This document shows positions 3,085 through 62,349 of a stretch of DNA of 64,000 bases, piece after piece (position 1 is the first letter of the stretch; each line of letters opens with the position of its first letter). The notes below the pieces were generated by a model that had not been told where the DNA came from, did no database searches, and was given only the letters and a program-made list of their open reading frames with translations. A program made the translations under genes and the position numbers. Source of the DNA: Octopus sinensis (lineage: Eukaryota); NCBI RefSeq assembly GCF_006345805.1, contig NC_042999.1, positions 131,068,001-131,132,000 on the forward strand, given 5' to 3'.

Positions 3085-5275
3085 CAGCACTGGCATAGGC
3101 CATGGTTATGGTCTCACTTGGCTTGCCGGGTCTTCTCAAGCACAGCATATCTCTAAAGGTCTCGGTCACTTGTCATTACCTTGGTGAGGCCCAATGTTCA
3201 ATGGTCATGCTTCACTACCTCATCCCAGGTCTTCCTGAATCTGCCTCTTCCACAGGTTCCTTTGACTGCTAGCATGTGACACTTTTTCACACAGCTGTCC
3301 TCATCCATTTGCAACACATGGCCATACCAGCGCAGTCATTTCTCTTGCACACCACATCTGATGCTTCTTAAATCCAACTTTTCTCTCAGGGCACTTACAC
3401 TCTGTCGTGTATGCACACTGACATTACACATCCAGCGGAGCATACTGGCTTCATTCCTTGCAAGCTTATGCATGTCCTCAACAGTCATGGCCCATGTTTC
3501 ACTGCCATGTAGCATAGCTGTTCGCACACATGCTTCATACAGTCTACCTTTTACTCTGAGCGAGAGGCCCTTTGTGACCAGGAGAGGTAGGAGCTCTCTG
3601 AAATTTGCCCAAGCTATCCTTGCTCTAGCAGCTACACTTTCAGAGCATCCACTCCTGCTACTGACTTGGTCACCTAGGTAATGGAATCTATCAACTACTT
3701 GTAGTTTTTCCCCTGGAATGTGACGGAAGCTGTTCTCTGCACATTTTCAGTGTTATTTATTGCTTCCAAGCATCTGCCACATACAAAAACTATCCTCCCA
3801 GTTAGCGTTCCTTTGATATTGCTGCACCTCTTATGTGTCCATAGCTTACACTGGATACATCGTATGGAGTTTCTACCTACATCTTTTCTACAGATCAAGC
3901 AGGGCTATCTACCTGAAGGGATTTGTGCTTTATCTGCCTTCCTACTTATCAAGAATTTGGTTTTTGCTAGGTTGACTCTAAGGCCCTTTGATTCTAGACA
4001 TTGCTTTCGCACCTGAAACTTCTCCTCTAGTTCTGATAGTGACTCAGCAATTAGAGCAAGATCATCGGCATAGAGAAGGTCCCACGGGCATCCTGTCTTG
4101 AATTCCTCTGATATTTCCTGGAGGACTATGATAAGCAAGAGGGGGCTGAGGACTGATCCGTGGTGGAACACTACCCCTTCCCAGAATTCTTCGCTGTACT
4201 TATTGCCAACCCTCACCTTACTGACAGCATCCCTGTACATGGCTTGTACAGCTCTCACAAACCATTCATCTATCCCTAGTTTTCTCATTGACCACCAGAT
4301 AAGGATTGGGAGAACCTGTCAAAGGCTTTCTCCATGTCAACGAAAGCCAGGTTTATCTTTGGCTAGGTATTTCTCCTACAGCTGTCTTACCAGAAATATA
4401 GCACCAGTGGTGCTTTTCCCTGGCACAACCCAAACTGCATCTCATCTAGAATGAATCTCACCCTAATTAGTTGGGCTATGAGCCTCTCCATTACTTTCAT
4501 TACCTGATCCAACAACTTGATACCTCTAATTATTTGTATCTAATGCGTTACCTTTACCTTTGTAGCAGTTAACTATGGTGCTGCTACACCAATCATTGGG
4601 TATGACTCTTTCATGTATCACCTCATTGACTATACAGGTGACTAGACTATAGCTGACACCGCCAGATATTTTAAGCATCTCTGTGTTGATTCCTCATGCG
4701 CCGGGGGCTTTCCTTGTCTTCATACCCTTAATTGCTTTATCTACCAAGGTACTGTCAATTCAGACAGCTGGTCCTTCTGTTGGGTCAACATTCAGCAAAC
4801 TCTCTTTCTCCCATTCATTCTCTTCATTTAGCAACCTTTGAGAGTGGTGTCCCTAAGTCTCTCTCCTTGTAGCCTAGTTAAATGCAAGTGATCCCTCATC
4901 CATGCGGATACATTTCTCTCCTATGGCATCACGATTCTTTCATGCAGCTTTACAACATAAAACACCTCAAGTCTCTGGGCCTCATGATGCAGAACATTGG
5001 CAAATTTTTTCTTATCTGCTTCCCCTCTGGCTAAATAAACCTGTCTCCTGGCATTCCCTTCTGGCTGTCTGATACAATTCCTTGCTGCCACCATTCTTCC
5101 AGTCATCCTATGCCTGTTTCTTCTCCCTAATGGCCCTGTCAACTACATTGTTCCACCACCACATTACCTTTGGTTGAGAGAGGACTTTGCACTATCCACA
5201 GATCTGGTCAGTGGCCCTCAACAGGTTGTCCCATAGAAACCTCCAGTTGTTGTCCACATCATGTGATGCTATATC
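3085..5275 (-). mobile_element. Degenerate RTE-clade LINE (RT and C-terminal region)
   Basis: Frameshifted ORFs with GSVLSPLL, LLYADDLAL, CIQCKLWTHKRC, MLHGSETW, MLRWMC. Confidence 0.9.
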
Positions 5276-5369: not shown

Positions 5370-5411
5370 CTTTATTTTCTGCTGCTTTAAATAAAGTATA
5401 TATATATATAT

Positions 5412-5451
<40 letters not shown>

Positions 5452-5689
5452 ATAGATAGGGAAACTCAGAGTAACAGATTTTGTTGGATTTTCTGCTGCT
5501 TTAAATAAATCAAATTACTCTACCACTGGTATTTGAGTACTCTTTTTTCCACCTTGTTTCACATTTATGTGTTTACTCCGGTATATATATATATATATAT
5601 ATATATAAATTAATAATAAATATTAGGGAATAAATCCAAACTTACAGGGAAAAATCAGATTTAGGATTGAATCCAATTTTATAGTAAAA

Positions 5690-6092
5690 TATTATATTAT
5701 ATTAAATTAGAGATAAAACCACTATTAGGCAAATCATACAATGAAAAACTTAAGCCAATACATAAGATTATTTAATTTATATTATTTAAATATATAACAA
5801 AATTATTAAAAAAATATAATTACTATAACACTACGATCGTTTCATAGCTGTTAATTTCTTTAAATTTTCAAGTTACAGTCATTCATCAGGTGGTTTAAAT
5901 ATTTAACTTGGCAAGGTTTAATCAATGAAATTAACAGCCATGAAACGAGCGTAGTGTTATATTAATTATATTTTTTCAATAATTTTGTTATATATTTAAA
6001 TAATATAAATTAAATAATCTTATGTATTGGCTAAGTTTTTCATTGTATGATTTGCCTAATAGTGGTTTTATCTCTAATTTAATGTAATATAT
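5690..6092. mobile_element. Fold-back element in a (TA)n tract; ~165-bp inverted arms around a ~70-bp spacer
   Basis: 5695-5858 is the reverse complement of 5927-6090 with a few substitutions; an AT-rich extension lies at 5606-5690. Confidence 0.85.
5826..5896 (-). ncRNA. Minimal type-I hammerhead ribozyme, canonical core
   Basis: Minus strand reads cac-CTGATGA-atgactgt...acagctat-GAAA-cgatcg-TA-gtg: helix I cac/gtg, ~7-bp helix II, palindromic helix III, GUA cleavage triplet. Confidence 0.75.
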
Positions 6093-6749
6093 ATATATAT
6101 ATATGTATATACACATACATATATGTGTGTATATGTTTATATTTATATATATGTGTGTGTATACCGATTTGTTTTACAAGATTCCTGATGTGAAATCGTG
6201 TGTTGAAACAGATATTGTTGTATTTCGAGATGATCATGTTATTTTATTTAATTTTTTCTTTTTCTGCCACATAAAACACATGGAGCACCAAGTAGGAAAA
6301 AGAACAATCATTTTTGACACCTGCTTCTGTTTGCTTTCATTCAAGGTTTCAAAGTTGCTAAATCTACACGAGACATTTGTGCTGTGTATGGAGAAGGTGC
6401 TATGACACCAAACTGCATAATGGTCTTCATGCTTCAAGGAGATAAACTGGACATCATAGCAGCCGACCTATTTACTCCAATGAATATCAATTCTGCTAGT
6501 CCAATAGGAAATTGGCCGAGCTGATGGGCTGCTTCTATGATTACAAACACTCGTCACCTTCACTCAATAGTTAAGGTCCAAAAACTTGATGCATGGCACC
6601 ACAGATTCTGAATGAAAGACACAAACTCCAGAGCTTCTCTATGACTGGCATTTTGCTCACTTAACATTAGGCCACACATGGGCACAAATTTCTTTATTGT
6701 TCACTAACTTCCTTTCCAGCTGATGACAGAGATAGAGAGAGAGAGATAC

Positions 6750-9435: not shown

Positions 9436-12250
9436 GAATCATCATCATCTTAAATGCTTGCATGAAATTTGTTTTATGGTCAGATACCCATCCTGCCATC
9501 AACCCTCACTTGTTTCCAAGTTACAGTAATATTTCTCCATGACCAGACACGCTCTCCTGGAGCCTGGAAGTGGGAGTCATAGGATTGCAATTCATTTCCA
9601 ATTTGTCCTCTTATCATCAACAAAAAAATCTAAGACCAGAACACTATTTAGAATAAAGAGTAAAGTGAGTTGACAGCTCATAGCTGGCTGCTGGTCATAA
9701 ATTTCATACTGTCATAAGTAACCCTCGACCCACAAAAAAACCCCCAAAAAACTTTAGAAAGAATCAATTAGATAGGGAAGTGCAGGAGGAGAGTGGGAGA
9801 TAGCAGGATAGAGATGGTGGCAAAATACTGGACATACTCACAAGGAACGGAGATGAGAGTATAAATGGGAAGGTTGAGTAAAGGAAGAGAAAGATATAGA
9901 CAGTGGCAAGTTCCAGGGCATACCCTTGAAGTTCAAATGCCATAATATAAGTGGCAGGATATTGCGAAGGGAGTGTAATTAAAGAGTGCGAGTAAGTAGT
10001 ATATACAGAGTCAGGGGGCGGGGGCTAGCGGATAGCAATGATATAGAGGAACAGGGGTGTGAGGACATGATTGTGGAGTGTATGAAGGAGGAAATATGAG
10101 AAAGAGGGGAGATGTGGAGGTGTAGATTGGTTTGTTGGAGTAGGGCAAGGGAAAAGTTGTCTTGTTATGTGTGGGTGGAACACCCAGGTCAGGAGCTAGC
10201 AGATAGCAATAATAGAGTGAGACAGGGCATGTGGGTAGAAGGCACAGGGATTGGGAAGTAATCATAATACATAAAGTGGAAATGCGAGGAAGAAAAGAGA
10301 TGTAGAGACGTAGTTTGGTTTGTTGTGGTAGATTGTGTGAGAAATTTTCATAAGTGTGGGTGGAACACACAGCGCTTCTAGAACTCAAGTTTCGCTGATA
10401 TGGGCGGGTCTTTTCAAAAACTTCATATTGCCAGACATCTCAGTCCATTGTCATTTCCTCTGTGAGGCCCAACTTCCTGGGATTGGTCCTTACCACTTCA
10501 TCCCATGTCTTCCTGGGTTTCCCTCTTCCACGAGTACCATCCACTTTCAGTGATCATGCAGCTGTCCTCATTCATATGCATCACATGTCCAAACCAACAT
10601 AGTCTTCTCTCTAGCATGCTACATTTGATTCCTCTTATGCTCAACTTTTCTCTCAATACATTTGCACTTTGCTGTCCATGTGCACTGATGTTGCACATCC
10701 AACGGAACATACTACCTTTGTTTCTCTCCAGTCTACGCATGTCTTCTGCATTCAGAGCCCATGTCTCACTACCATGGAGTATAGCCGTTCATACACAAGC
10801 ATCATATAGGCTATCATTTCTACCTTTCACTCTGAGAGAGAGTCCTTTTGTTGCCAACAGAGGTAATAGCCCTCTGAACTTCCTCCACCCAATTCTTATT
10901 CAAGAAACAATACTTTCAGAGCATCCTCCACCATTGCTAATTTGGTCACCTAGGTAACAAAATCTATTTACAACCTCAAGAGAGCCTCCTGGGCATTTGA
11001 GAGAATCTAATTCCCATGTGCTCTTAGTGCTTATTGTTCCTGCACATATATAAAGACTACTTCATCTGTTAATCTACCTGTGATTCCACTGCACCCTTTA
11101 TCTTCTTTCTTACTAACTTTTGTCTTAGCTAGGTTAATTTTAAGGCCCTTTGATTCCAGGTCTTGTTCTCATACCTGGAATTTCTTCTCCAATTCTGCAA
11201 TAAGAGCAAGGTCATCAACATAGCAGTTCCCACAGGTACCCAGTTTTGAATTCCCCTGTTATGGTCTGGAGGACTATAAGAGTGGGCTGAGAACCAGGCC
11301 CTGATGAACCCCTACCTGAATGCTAAATTCATCACTGTATTCATGGCTGACTCTCACCTTTCTGACAGCATCACTGTACATGGCTTGGACAGCTCCAACT
11401 AGCCACTCCCCTACTCTTAACTTCCTTAGAGACTACCATATAACAGCGGAGAACTCTGTTGAAAGCTTCTCCAGGTCAACAAAGGCTTAGTACAATGCCT
11501 TCTTACTTTTGGCCAAGTATTTTTCCAGCAGCTGTCTCACTAGGGAGACAGCATCTGTGGTACTCTTCCCAGGTACAAAACTAAACTGCATCTCATCTAG
11601 TTTAATTCTATTTCTAATCAATTGAGCTATAACCTTCTCAGAAATTTTCATGATTTGGTCTAGTAGTTTAATACCTCTGTAGTTATTTCTATCTAAGGCA
11701 TCACCTTTACCCTTGTAGCAGTTAACTCTAAAGCTACTACACCAGTCATTGGGGATGGTTCCTTCCTGAATAACCTGATTAACTATATGGTTGACTAAGC
11801 TCTATCCTACACTACTGGAAATTTTAATAATCTTAACAGTGATTCCTGGTGGCCCAGGGGCTTTCCCTGTCTTCATGTCCTAAATTGCTTTATCTAATAT
11901 ACTGTCATCAACTCTAATGGCTGGTTTGATATTTGGTAAATTCTCCTTCTCCCATTCATTTTCCATGTTTAGTAACCTTTTATAGTGACACTTCTGTGCA
12001 TCTTTCTGCTCTGAGTCACTAAGTACAAGCATGCCATTATCCATCTGCACACATTCCACATCTCTATTTTCTTTGATACACTGCTTTGCAATCCCGAACA
12101 CCTTATGGCACTGATCCTCATGTTGTAGAACATTTGCAAATCTCTTACCTTCAGCTAGTGCTTTTGCTATGTTTACCTGATGCCAAGCTGCCCTTTTGGC
12201 TACCTGATATAATTCTCTGCTTTCATTTTCCAGGCCTGTCTTTTTGCATT
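9436..12250 (-). mobile_element. Degenerate RTE LINE with long low-complexity 3' UTR and (GAT)n tail
   Basis: RT remnants 10400-12250 (MFRWMC, WFGHVMHM); G/A-rich internally duplicated 3' region 9770-10380; CATCAT tail at ~9440. Confidence 0.8.
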
Positions 12251-12329
12251 TATAACACTACGCATATATATATATATATATATATATATTCATACATACA
12301 CATATATATATATATATATCCATACACAC

Positions 12330-19711: not shown

Positions 19712-20683
19712 TTAACGAGCAGCCGAAGCTTGTGTGGCTGTTTGCTGTTGTACGTTGCTTGTAGCTTTTTGTTTCAACATTGTCCAGTCAAATGTATAAT
19801 CGTACTGATAATTGAGAGTACGAAAAAGAATGCGGAAAAGCTGCCTGAGGTACATATAATCAGGAGCTTCCTCAAAACGCAATCCACGGCAGTAATTCAA
19901 ATACATAGCGAATTCTGTTGGAAAGCCTTTACACAGGGCTTCGACGGGAGTAGACATTTTCCTCTCGCTTATCTTCTCATACTTCTGTTTTTTGGTCGCC
20001 GCTTTCAGACCTTGCCAAGGAAGGCTACCACGATTGAAATACATCAAAACATAGCCAAGGGATTCCATATCGTCCCTACGACTCTGTTCGATTCCCAAGT
20101 GAGCATTAATGCTAGCATAACGAGCAGTTCCGGTCAAATTTTTATCTTCGCGGTAGACAATATGTTGTCGTGTCTTACTGTCGCGATATTTTTTAGCCAA
20201 ACCAAAATCTATTATGAATAACTTATTACAGTGTCGTCCGATTCCCATCAAGAAATTGTCAGGCTTAATATCTCGGTGAATAAAATTTCTGTTGTGAACA
20301 TATTCCATTCGTGCAATCATCTGGTCCGCAATCAACAATACAGTTTTCATGGTAAATCGTCTCGAACAGAAGTTGAACAAATCTTCAAGGCTCGGTCCTA
20401 ATAAATCCATAACAAGGATATTATAATCTCGCTCTTGATTATACCAACGGACATGGGGAATCCCAACACCTCCTTGTAAGATTTTATAGAGCTTACTTTC
20501 ATAGAGAAGTTGTTGATGTCGAGCTTTAATCGACTCCAATTTAACAGCGACTTCCTCGCCATTTGTTATGTTGATGCCTAGGTAAATATCACCGAACGAC
20601 CCACTGCCAATTTTCCGCACTAATCGATACTTTCCAGTGGCAAAGAAGTCTGTTCGACTAGATCTTTCGCTGCTTACCTCCAT
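19712..20683 (-). CDS. CSNK1A1: Casein kinase 1 alpha (323 aa, single uninterrupted ORF)
   Basis: [51 protein letters not shown] and LPWQGLKA motifs; alpha-type [16 protein letters not shown] and short C-tail after WTMLKQKA. Confidence 0.96.
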
Positions 20684-20756
20684 ACTTATTTTTTCGTGTA
20701 CAATACAATTATTCTTCTAATGAATTGGTAATAAAGTTAGACTACGCCAGCCAAAT

Positions 20757-22933: not shown

Positions 22934-23804
22934 TTAAACCTTTAGCATTTAAATAATAATAATAATGAAATTATTGTATACAGTGCTCAGGTGCACCACA
23001 ACTTGTCAAAAGTGCATATAAAGTACATGCAGTAATGTAAAAATGTCTGGAAAGCGAACAATGTATGAGTCAGATACATGCTTGTGTGTGTATGGAGGGG
23101 AGAAAATCAGGTGTAGTGTTGGTGAATCTCAGAAAGCATGGAAGTTTTGAAGGACGCAGTGCTCCGACAACTAACAACTGATGCTGGCAGTTTGTTCCAT
23201 GCTTCAGCAACTCTCAGCGTGAAAAAATGTTTCCTGAAGTCATGGGAGCTGTGCTGTTTTCTTACTTTGTAAATATGTCCACGGGTGTTAGATAGGTGGA
23301 GTTTGAAAAGGTGCTCAGAGTTGTTGTTTGTACGATGGTTGATAATTTTATGGGTGTCTGCCAAGTCAGCTGCCAGACATCGGAGTTTCAATGTGTCCAT
23401 GCCCAGGGAAGTAAGGCGTTCAGGGGATATGGCAAATGCTTGATGGAGGATATTCTTTTGGTTGCACGTCGCTGAACAGCTTCCAGACGATTGATATCCT
23501 GGGCAAGATAGGGGTTCCAGACCGGTGATGCAAATTCCAGGTGAGGTCTTACCATAGCTATATAAAGCCGCAGATTTAAACTGACCATATCCGGCCTGAA
23601 TATTCTTGTTGCTTTATTATCAAACTGGTCAGAGCCAGCCTCTAACACCTACCCTATAATATCATTCTAAGAAAAAAAAAAGAAAAAAAACACAAAATAC
23701 ATCATTGAAATCTTAAAGCTATGAGATTATGCGTGATTTATTCAAAACAATGTGAATAAATAAGCATTACATTTGTCAGAATAATCCAAATGCTAAAGGG
23801 TTAA
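22934..23804. mobile_element. piggyBac-type MITE interrupted by a CR1-type LINE
   Basis: TTAAACCTTTAGCATTTAAA ... CTGACCATATCC...TGCTAAAGGGTTAA; ATTTAAA is duplicated around the LINE. Confidence 0.75.
22954..23573 (-). mobile_element. CR1/L2-type LINE 3' fragment with (ATT)n tail
   Basis: LYIAMVRPHLEFASPVWNPY...LEAVQRRATK; TRGHIYK...RKHFFTLRVAEAWNKLP. Confidence 0.9.
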
Positions 23805-35962: not shown

Positions 35963-36368
35963 TAACATACATAAATAAATTTTGAAAACATTCATTCTTC
36001 ATTTCTAATTTATTTAATGTAAGCATTTAGTTATCATGCATAAGTTACTTTACAGAGAGAAAGACAATACTATTTTATCAGATATAAATTTAAGATGTGT
36101 GACAGCTAAGAGGTAGATCTAAATGTTAAGAATCAGTCCATGCATAGTCAATGTATTATTTTAAAAACAAATCTAGAAAGACATCTTAAAGAGGTAATTT
36201 TATTTACCCAAAGTATAAAAATATTAATCTATTTGAATTGATGTTAAATATTCATAAAACTGGGGGTAAATATCCTAGTAATTCTCCATTCTCATATGAT
36301 TGCGTTCCTATAAATATGTTCTTGTATGGATAGGAATATATGTATAAGAACTTAATAACACAGCCTGT

Positions 36369-36399
<31 letters not shown>

Positions 36400-37200
36400 G
36401 GATGCATAAGTTCTTTTTGGGGTCATTTGTTTTAATTTAGAAAAAGATGTATAGTTCATCATGGAAAAACTGGTTTTGAAAACAAATTGGTACAAATAAT
36501 CTGGAGAATTATTTGATCAGACCTATTCAATAAATCCACTGTTAGCATGAATGGTTGCTTCAGTACAGGATCAGAAACGTTGACATGCCCAGATCACATG
36601 ATCTTTATCAATTTTGGACTTAGTGCTTGTTATGGTGGACTTGAGAGGTTGTATAGTATTATGGGGGTGTTGATTGACCTCTCTCTTGATTGTGCCTCAT
36701 ACATAATAGTCCAGTGGATTGAGAAGTGGTGAGTTAGGAGGCCATGTGCCTAGAGGAATATGATCACGTAGATTGGTACTCATTCACACTTGAGTTATCT
36801 TAGTCTTATAAGACGGTGTAGAATCTTGTTGGACGATATACAGTACTCTGTGACATACTCTGTCTATCCAGGGTCTCACAACTTTCCCCAATATGTCTGT
36901 GTAGACAGCAGTATTGACTCTTTAACCCTGTGATAAAAAGTGAAGAGGCATGATACCTCCCTCGTTGCTCATGATTCCCAGAACCATCACATTTGCTGGG
37001 AAATTAGTATACATGACCAGTAGAACCTCACTTGGGTCTTTGCAAATTCATTCTGTTATTCCTTCACTTTACCTTTTGGCCTTGATCAAAGTTTTCTCAT
37101 CAGTGAAAAGTCAAAGCATTCCAAAAGGAAAATATAAAAACTTAGTTTATCAACACATTATAAATTGCCCCAAATAAAACAGAAATCTGGTCTAGTCAAG
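36400..37200 (-). mobile_element. Tc1/mariner transposase remnant
   Basis: Minus strand gives FTDEK, QQDSTPSIR-like and PNSPLLNPLDYYV motifs. Confidence 0.75.
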
Positions 37201-61850: not shown

Positions 61851-62349
61851 TTGGTACCCCATTATTTTGAGTTAAGATCTTGATCGTATTAAGGTGGCTA
61901 GTGAGCCAGTTTTGTGAATTTGAATCTTGTTGATTCAAATTCACAAAGCTGACTCACTAGTCCTGTGTTGTCTCTTTTGCGAAACAAAATATTTGACTTG
62001 CTTTCAGTAACTGGGAAAATATGCTACACCCACCTTACAGTTGACTGATTAGTATTGATTTATAAATAATATTTTATGTCAGTAACATACAGTCTGGCCC
62101 ATATTAGCAGAGACAAGATTGATACTATATGATAATGTATGATTCTTCAATGTGTGTTAATAGAAAGCAAAGTTTTAAGGGGGGGGGGAAGAAATGTTTT
62201 TTTGAAGTTGTATTACATTGTTTGTTATTCAAAAAATAAGAGTAATCACAGACAATTTTTAACAGAATTAAATTTAAGTACAGTGTCATGGATTTCATAG
62301 TTTGAATACTTTCTGCTGCATGTTTTTAATGTTGGGTATGTTAATTTAA

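Follow-up and report, generated by a model that had tools for sequence, protein, structure and literature searches.

The closest described systems are Penelope-like elements (PLEs), whose known traits, in the parts of the literature consulted here, include inverted pLTRs, one-sided tails, TA targets, leader introns and hammerheads (PMC8557442, PMC3846280, PMC2377424, PMC8969392). Within this group, the Hydra clade (Craig et al. 2021, PMC8557442) combines a C-terminal GIY-YIG domain with DKT, R-x-x-WK and YRDD motifs, a CxCX5C linker, CxxC and CxH motifs without CCHH, a (TA)n target and a canonical hammerhead near the 3' end, and described Hydra elements are generally shorter than 3 kb. In the pLTR of D. 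virilis Penelope (PMC2377424; PMC4209133), the transcription start is followed by a short exon 1, a 5'-UTR intron that ends beside the hammerhead, and then the ORF; this intron is 75 nt long and is described as being retained through transposition. As far as the consulted passages go, PLE hammerheads of such kind show low activity in vitro and a dimer requirement (PMC4209133), and the significance of intron retention in PLEs is called unknown (PMC8557442).

For the inversions of PLEs, antisense self-priming has been favoured, while an unspliced sense template was also considered possible (PMC3846280, in the part consulted). Frangieh et al. (2024, PMC11167929) reported that the anole Poseidon protein PAc cut and extended both target strands in vitro, and that its reverse transcription started at two internal sites bounding the tail on uncut RNA; the parts of the paper covered here draw no link between the two sites and the two arms of an inversion. 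Short, ORF-less, PLE-derived units with a type-I hammerhead and a palindromic helix III have been described as non-LTR retrozymes, which, in the consulted part of that preprint, form head-to-tail arrays (bioRxiv 10.64898/2026.07.22.740005).

Here we analyse a fold-back element in a stretch of 64,000 nucleotides of Octopus sinensis DNA (hereafter the window). It is a mobile-element relic with no sign of a host function, and we regard it as nearly certain that it is a copy of the spliced leader of a PLE, whichever of the copying models discussed below (twin priming, fold-back or two RNAs) holds.

Structure of the fold-back element

The element consists of two inverted arms of 169 and 165 nt embedded in (TA)n (Table 1), in agreement with a sequence-only reading of the window that had described inverted arms of about 165 bp at this place. 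The arms are 93% identical between 5745-5861 and 5924-6040 and 98% identical between 5693-5752 and 6032-6091. The tail is a single-copy stretch of 83 nt that lies outside the arms and is present on one arm only; the sequence-only reading had passed over it. Another short repeat (5374-5581) ends at the left TA run; it shows a 22-nt direct repeat around a TA/TAGA insertion and recurs beside TA runs at two further loci (L105, L337).

Table 1 Features of the fold-back element and its hammerhead motif in the window. Positions are given in window coordinates.
Feature	Position	Strand	Basis
(TA)n target microsatellite, left flank	5582..5607		read from sequence
Tail of ~80 nt between inner and outer 3' end sites (putative RT starts)	5610..5692	-	copy mapping
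Sense arm, belonging to exon 2 of the leader and repeated by the inverted arm	5693..5861	-	arm alignment
Type-I hammerhead motif with 3-bp helix I, CUGAUGA core, long helix II, GAAA, palindromic helix III and GUA site	5829..5892	-	sequence
Hammerhead CAC	5892-5890	-	
Hammerhead CTGATGA core	5889-5883	-	
Hammerhead helix II, 5' strand, followed by a 23-nt insert	5882-5875	-	
Hammerhead helix II, 3' strand	5851-5844	-	
Hammerhead GAAA	5843-5840	-	
Hammerhead helix III palindrome CGATCG	5839-5834	-	
Hammerhead TA	5833-5832	-	
Hammerhead GTG	5831-5829	-	
Exon 1/exon 2 junction, parental 700-887-nt GT-AG intron precisely gone	5902..5903	-	parent alignment
Exon 1 remnant, starting 2 bases inside the major 5' end of spliced copies (putative transcription start)	5903..5929	-	
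Head-to-head junction, 3 nt common to both arms	5927..5929		window vs parent sequence
Inverted arm, 5'-truncated inside helix II, ending at the inner TA-like site, tail-less	5927..6091	+	
(TA)n target microsatellite, right flank	6088..6104		read from sequence

Copies of the family in the genome

The Octopus sinensis genome (2.72 Gb, 30 large scaffolds) was searched with exact patterns. A 24-mer from the tail stretch gave 2,747 matches and a 22-mer over the ribozyme core 250, compared to none for the reversed control in either case. We mapped 125 loci (128 minus 3 duplicates) onto one natural copy as reference, which yielded 83 head-to-head pairs and 39 solos, with leftover pieces in 13 loci. 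The 5' end of the family unit, which is approximately 320 nt long, is fixed; the hammerhead occupies about 46-103, and the 3' ends fall at two places about 80 nt apart. TA runs follow 78 of 80 tail-bearing arm ends, as opposed to 4% of random window positions, and the position of the junction varies from copy to copy among the mapped loci. Related subfamilies have the 3' part in common and differ in helix II. In a few loci the element was duplicated locally together with its flanks (pairs L010, L076 and L077 are local duplicates).

The family shares its small size, the missing ORF, the PLE derivation, the type-I hammerhead and the palindromic helix III with the retrozymes. However, the head-to-tail tandems of hammerhead units that characterise retrozymes were absent from the 125 loci, where copies are dispersed solos or head-to-head pairs ending at the two putative start sites. 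Fixed symmetric TIRs without an RNA intermediate, as in MITEs and fold-back DNA transposons, do not describe the family either, since its ends are unequal, solos occur and an intron has been lost. One locus (L185:950-1620) carries an identical GC-rich sequence of about 190 nt on both arms, 5' of exon 2 and in place of exon 1, which is possibly the join of a chimeric or host-spliced RNA that was copied by the PLE.

The parent element

Some copies carry a long AT-rich stretch that is absent from the window. It starts with GT, ends with AG, is 700-887 nt long in four aligned copies (L228, L256, L277, L281) and is removed base-exactly in the window element. The unspliced donor pattern has 167 exact matches in the genome, and a hammerhead was found 692-1,138 nt downstream in 12 of 30 donor loci. 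Frames with RT and GIY-YIG motifs lie upstream of unspliced copies on the same strand, and ORF, donor, intron, hammerhead and 3' end follow each other in this order on one strand in 5 of 20 loci (L256, L258, L269, L271, L272). The copy at L281 matches exon 2 of the window at 96.6% identity over 205 nt, and a GIY-YIG C-terminus is encoded 1.24 kb upstream of it. The tandems at L260 and L273 place the end of the tail about 50 nt ahead of the ATG of the ORF, which identifies the unit found in the window as the 5' leader in spliced form. The further arrangements typical of PLEs are also present, with pLTR tandems at L260, L268 and L273, the inverted copy and one-sided tail, and an inverted arm together with an ORF fragment at L281 and L283.

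The parent frames comprise 859 and 762 aa and contain YRDD and Y-I-G-S-T/R motifs. A Pfam search of two parent frames found neither RT nor GIY-YIG and a PDB sequence search returned nothing relevant, while the best PDB matches of an AF2 model of the protein (pLDDT 75.7) were telomerase RTs (E 3.7e-10). Motifs and structural match point to the combination of RT and GIY-YIG in one ORF that is characteristic of PLEs, the putative GIY-YIG assignment resting on motifs and Hydra homology. Read against the text and supplement alignment of PMC8557442 as far as consulted, L259 and L260 show DKT, the CxCX5C linker, CxxC/CxH, no CCHH and the (TA)n target, with the RWK motif in the form RIKWK. The parent protein is 36% identical to P0007 (E 3.9e-79), which by eye is near-identical to Hydra-2_Amil. 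By its motifs and its homology to P0007, the parent can be placed as a Hydra-clade PLE.

Nevertheless, the octopus family differs from Hydra-1_Obim and the other Hydra elements in the consulted parts of PMC8557442 by its pLTR tandems, a leader intron of 0.7-1.1 kb, a 3' region of at least about 1.3 kb, an N-rich linker and a tail of about 80 nt instead of 30-40 nt. Six family motifs are absent from the supplement of that paper, in the part consulted, and hence the family is not Hydra-1_Obim. In L259 and L260, a long asparagine-rich low-complexity insert lies between RT and linker (model residues ~450-560) and resembles the N-rich inserts of rotifer PLEs (PMC3846280, part consulted). The order of start, short exon 1, 5'-UTR spliceosomal intron, hammerhead within the pLTR and ORF corresponds to that of D. 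virilis Penelope, whereas intron-less copies, in contrast to the retained intron described there, are abundant in the octopus. No intact ORF of the exact subfamily of the window was found among the genome copies examined.

The sequence-only reading had likened the element to terminal repeats of PLEs persisting without their ORF. The PLE origin stands, as the element is the leader or pLTR of a PLE with RT and putative GIY-YIG that is placed in the Hydra clade; the persistence without ORF does not, as ORF-bearing relatives occur in the same genome.

Two other proposals for the origin were discarded. Intact Neptune-type frames obtained with a Pfam GIY-YIG genome search had been considered as the parent. 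Two of them, at L064 and L066, neighbour family-like pieces, but frame and piece were inserted separately into TA runs, and BLASTP showed no relationship between the L064 protein and the true parent (best E 0.23). A parentless family, based on the lack of upstream family sequence in all 16 extreme-5' copies, was overturned by the intron-bearing copies.

The hammerhead motif

All parts of the complete type-I hammerhead that had been claimed for the minus strand were located, including the CUGANGA/GAAA core, three helices and an NUH site, with a predicted cut between positions 5832 and 5831. The opposite arm carries the GAAA half only, as also stated in the sequence-only reading, and its palindrome has one change. 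Helix II contains one A.C mismatch and one G.U pair; it begins with an A-U pair where G-C is usual, and in 6 of 19 variants these two positions do not pair. In the window alone, the motif is weak. A scan of the window with Rfam detected no hammerhead family at E<=1 and only microsatellite and hairpin noise, the core pattern was also present in 23 of 100 shuffles, and the fold of 91 nt (z=-1.42) was predicted to differ from the hammerhead fold.

The significance of the motif comes from the family, in which the 22-mer over the core has 250 exact genomic matches and its reversed control none. We compared 19 hand-picked subfamily variants, which are mutually related and were chosen by the core pattern; the core, fixed by that pattern, is kept, and 87.4% of helix cells pair compared to 81.5% after shuffling. 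Two-sided changes were found in 5 of 16 helix pairs across these selected and related variants, including a change from G-C to A-U in the helix III palindrome of six variants (n=19). With rows that are related and share the core pattern by selection, these pairing counts amount to support and not to proof.

For the monomer, folding predicts +1.2 kcal/mol for the hammerhead fold in comparison to a minimum of -5.7 kcal/mol (helices I and II only), while the helix III palindrome is predicted to co-fold as a dimer at -12.0 kcal/mol. In the predicted fold of the whole fold-back transcript, the GAAA half is locked in a long hairpin. Genomic copies span the cut site, which suggests that the copied template RNA was uncut, as in the consulted parts of PMC11167929. 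The hammerhead was inherited from the pLTR, and the predicted cutting would probably need a dimer or a protein.

A spliced sense RNA as likely template

We counted by hand the base before the major 5' end in 93 matches that span both this end and the splice site. It is a G in 25 of 65 spliced and in none of 28 unspliced matches (Fisher p=2.6e-5), a comparison that is partly trivial because most unspliced matches simply continue in parent sequence; among the 46 spliced matches that do not continue in parent sequence, the same 25 carry the extra G. The parent base at this position is T, and in 2 of the 25 cases the prefix could be supplied by antisense-arm sequence. In seven solo copies, found with a search pattern that selected for G, the G directly follows TA runs. 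An extra G opposite the cap is known in other retroelements, and the extra 5' G is likely a copied cap. Nineteen spliced copies extend upstream by about 5-125 nt, and none of them reaches the ORF. Together, the precise loss of the intron and the extra G indicate that a sense, spliced RNA was the likely template.

A tree of 81 rows, comprising all 36 unspliced and 45 of 87 spliced copies, showed both states interleaved, with 12 label changes of which at least four are forced by strong branches. A single label change was found in 0 of 200 bootstrap trees, while clustering by splice state on the same tree exceeds that of shuffles. This interleaving suggests that short spliced copies arose repeatedly from intron-bearing sources, and the leader-only fold-backs look like recurrent by-products and not like an independent lineage.

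Comparison of the two arms

The 83 pairs included 76 that could be classed, the other 7 having an arm that ends elsewhere. The tail was present on exactly one arm in 72 of these 76 pairs, compared to 38 expected if the arms were independent (p=1.8e-17). Two of the exceptions are two-tailed and two tail-less, one of the latter being split by an insertion. This one-tail rule also held for 39 of 40 pairs in a pattern-sampled subset, and among 40 loci sampled by the tail the partner arm was tail-less in 28 of 28 cases, with 12 of the 40 loci having no inverted arm. Towards the 5' end, the tail arm reaches further in 34 pairs, the tail-less arm in 27, and both are equal in 11. The arms do not overlap in 6 of 72 pairs, where the tail arm consists only of sequence that is missing from the other arm. 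An overlap of at least 2 nt at the junction was found in 53 of 83 pairs (uncontrolled count).

Arms diverge by 1.9% within one insertion and by 3.2% between insertions. Private variants are common to both arms in 89 cases (48 pairs) and limited to one arm in 186. One-arm variants are expected from later mutation or assembly error, and shared variants could also reflect gene conversion or the copying of one arm off the other. With regard to splice state, both arms are spliced in 10 pairs and unspliced in 2, and no mixed pair occurs in this small set of 12; 10 more pairs were not clearly scored. One pair carries a rare core change in both arms (L199), another an unrelated insert in both arms (L185).

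A second PLE family and other features of the window

The element at 455-877 of the window is the 3' end of a Neptune-type PLE, for which frames with RT-thumb, Zn-finger and GIY-YIG were found upstream at L326, L334 and L338. Its hammerhead shows the U3-A8 core variant, as described in the consulted part of PMC4209133, and its tail of about 35 nt, which is partial in the window, is present on one arm only. A first look at the genome yielded 2,266 candidates of this family. In the sequence-only reading, this element (461-871) had been considered unrelated to the fold-back in sequence and the same in architecture. BLAST detected no similarity between the two, and the likeness extends to the one-tail rule, which holds in 6 of 6 pairs of the Neptune-type family and is thus seen in two PLE clades of the genome (Hydra and Neptune-type). 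At L061-L075, Neptune-type PLE frames of 775-883 aa are free of stops in several copies (781 aa in L064-L067) and are accompanied by a second frame upstream and their own hammerheads. At least two PLE clades are represented by young families in this genome.

An uninterrupted, intron-less frame of 334 aa on the minus strand (19712-20716), which from its motifs we take to be a casein kinase 1, is possibly a retrocopy. Broken fragments at 3336-4318, 10466-12257 and 23107-23613 are, judging from their motifs, presumably remains of LINE-like RTs. Two short hairpins (36348-36413 and 61895-61963) show weak miRNA-like matches in Rfam.

Proposed mechanism and alternatives

In the twin priming of L1 elements, a second, internal start on the same RNA is primed by the other target strand, and the resulting head-to-head pieces are joined by microhomology. 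The octopus fold-backs differ from L1 inversions in their fixed internal site and in arms that usually overlap into inverted repeats. With moderate confidence, we propose that they arise by twin priming from two internal start sites on a single RNA, spliced and likely capped, a mechanism that is read from genomic end-products throughout. The RT-endonuclease of the parent would nick a (TA)n tract on both strands. Priming from one nick at the outer site would give rise to the tail arm, and priming from the other, about 80 nt further 5' on the RNA, would yield the tail-less arm. As a rule, one cDNA would reach the 5' end of the RNA and the other would stop early; their 3' ends would then join via a few matching bases to form head-to-head arms with the tail on one side. 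Both putative start sites precede the ATG, so that priming at either of them on a spliced mRNA would give nothing but leader-only copies. ORF-bearing copies may instead derive from a longer read-through RNA that is primed in the downstream pLTR and still contains the intron. The anole PAc system resembles this scheme in its two internal RT starts bounding the tail, the AT-rich target, the cutting of both strands and the uncut hammerhead RNA, although the PAc starts lie within the first ~120 nt of the ORF and the putative octopus starts both lie before the ATG (PMC11167929, parts covered). Together with these parallels, the one-tail rule, the non-overlapping arms, the likeness of the arms and the lack of mixed pairs favour one sense RNA with one start per strand.

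Several of these observations can also be accommodated by other models with the same PLE origin. The shared variants, the matching splice state of the arms and the short junction overlaps would all result if a cDNA or antisense-template copy primed itself by fold-back and an endonuclease trimmed one arm at the inner TA-like site, and the tail has indeed been attributed to endonuclease resolution (PMC8557442, part consulted). We consider this unlikely, because an antisense template permits neither splicing nor a cap at the sense 5' end and because a fold-back copy cannot hold sequence that its template lacks, whereas in 27 of 72 pairs it is the tail arm that is shorter, and in 6 the two arms do not overlap; later asymmetric deletions would be required. 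The one-tail rule, the greater length of either arm and the non-overlapping arms are explained equally well by a dimeric PLE complex with two RNAs, one per subunit, the geometry of which would force one outer and one inner start, and a PLE dimer is predicted in the consulted part of PMC11167929. Nevertheless, two RNAs leave unexplained why none of the 12 scored pairs is mixed in splice state though both states are copied, and why private variants, the core change of L199 and the insert of L185 occur on both arms. Two RNAs from one locus would account for the variants and not for the splice match, and we judge this model, too, to be unlikely.

High copy number, the fixed 5' end and the size of about 320 nt are also features of an independent lineage resembling SINEs or retrozymes, in which a single intron loss was followed by renewed transcription and amplification of the short copies themselves, and non-autonomous PLE derivatives with type-I hammerheads have been described (bioRxiv 10.64898/2026.07.22.740005, part consulted). 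With spliced and unspliced copies interleaved on the tree, variable junctions and no head-to-tail arrays of the short unit, such a lineage is largely refuted as the sole origin and overall very unlikely, although, given the clustering by splice state, some re-amplification may have occurred. A MITE or fold-back DNA transposon, with the arms as TIRs and a hammerhead arisen by chance, would fit the TA target, the inverted arms and a motif that is not significant in the window by itself; the spliced junction and the ORF of the parent refute it, and almost no credibility is left once variable 5' truncation, unequal ends, the conserved ribozyme core and solos at 39 of 125 loci are considered.

Implications for PLE biology

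The recurrent class of ribozyme-bearing fold-back retroelements that the sequence-only reading had suggested is not new, as its traits are those of PLEs described in the consulted parts of PMC8557442 and PMC4209133. In a literature search that covered subscription journals thinly, we found no report of spliced PLE copies or of twin priming in PLEs. The novelty appears to lie in a population of PLE copies that are leader-only, spliced and likely capped, and in the count that places the tail almost always on exactly one arm. With this family, models of PLE inversion can be told apart on hundreds of natural products; its head-to-head copies, spliced and likely capped, speak for a sense template and against antisense self-priming. 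Moreover, the one-tail rule, at 95%, ties the start sites observed in vitro in the consulted parts of PMC11167929 to the two target strands.

These findings bear on the inversions, tails and intron retention of PLEs. There is an even chance, in our estimation, that inverted pLTRs and one-sided tails in general result from programmed twin priming and that intron retention is positional, in that spliced, capped mRNA would be copied in bulk and give rise to dead leader copies only, and ORF-bearing copies would come from unspliced RNA primed in the downstream pLTR. This provides a testable account of retention. The family also shows that palindromes in such genomes that look like MITEs are, by the thousands, retro-products of PLEs.
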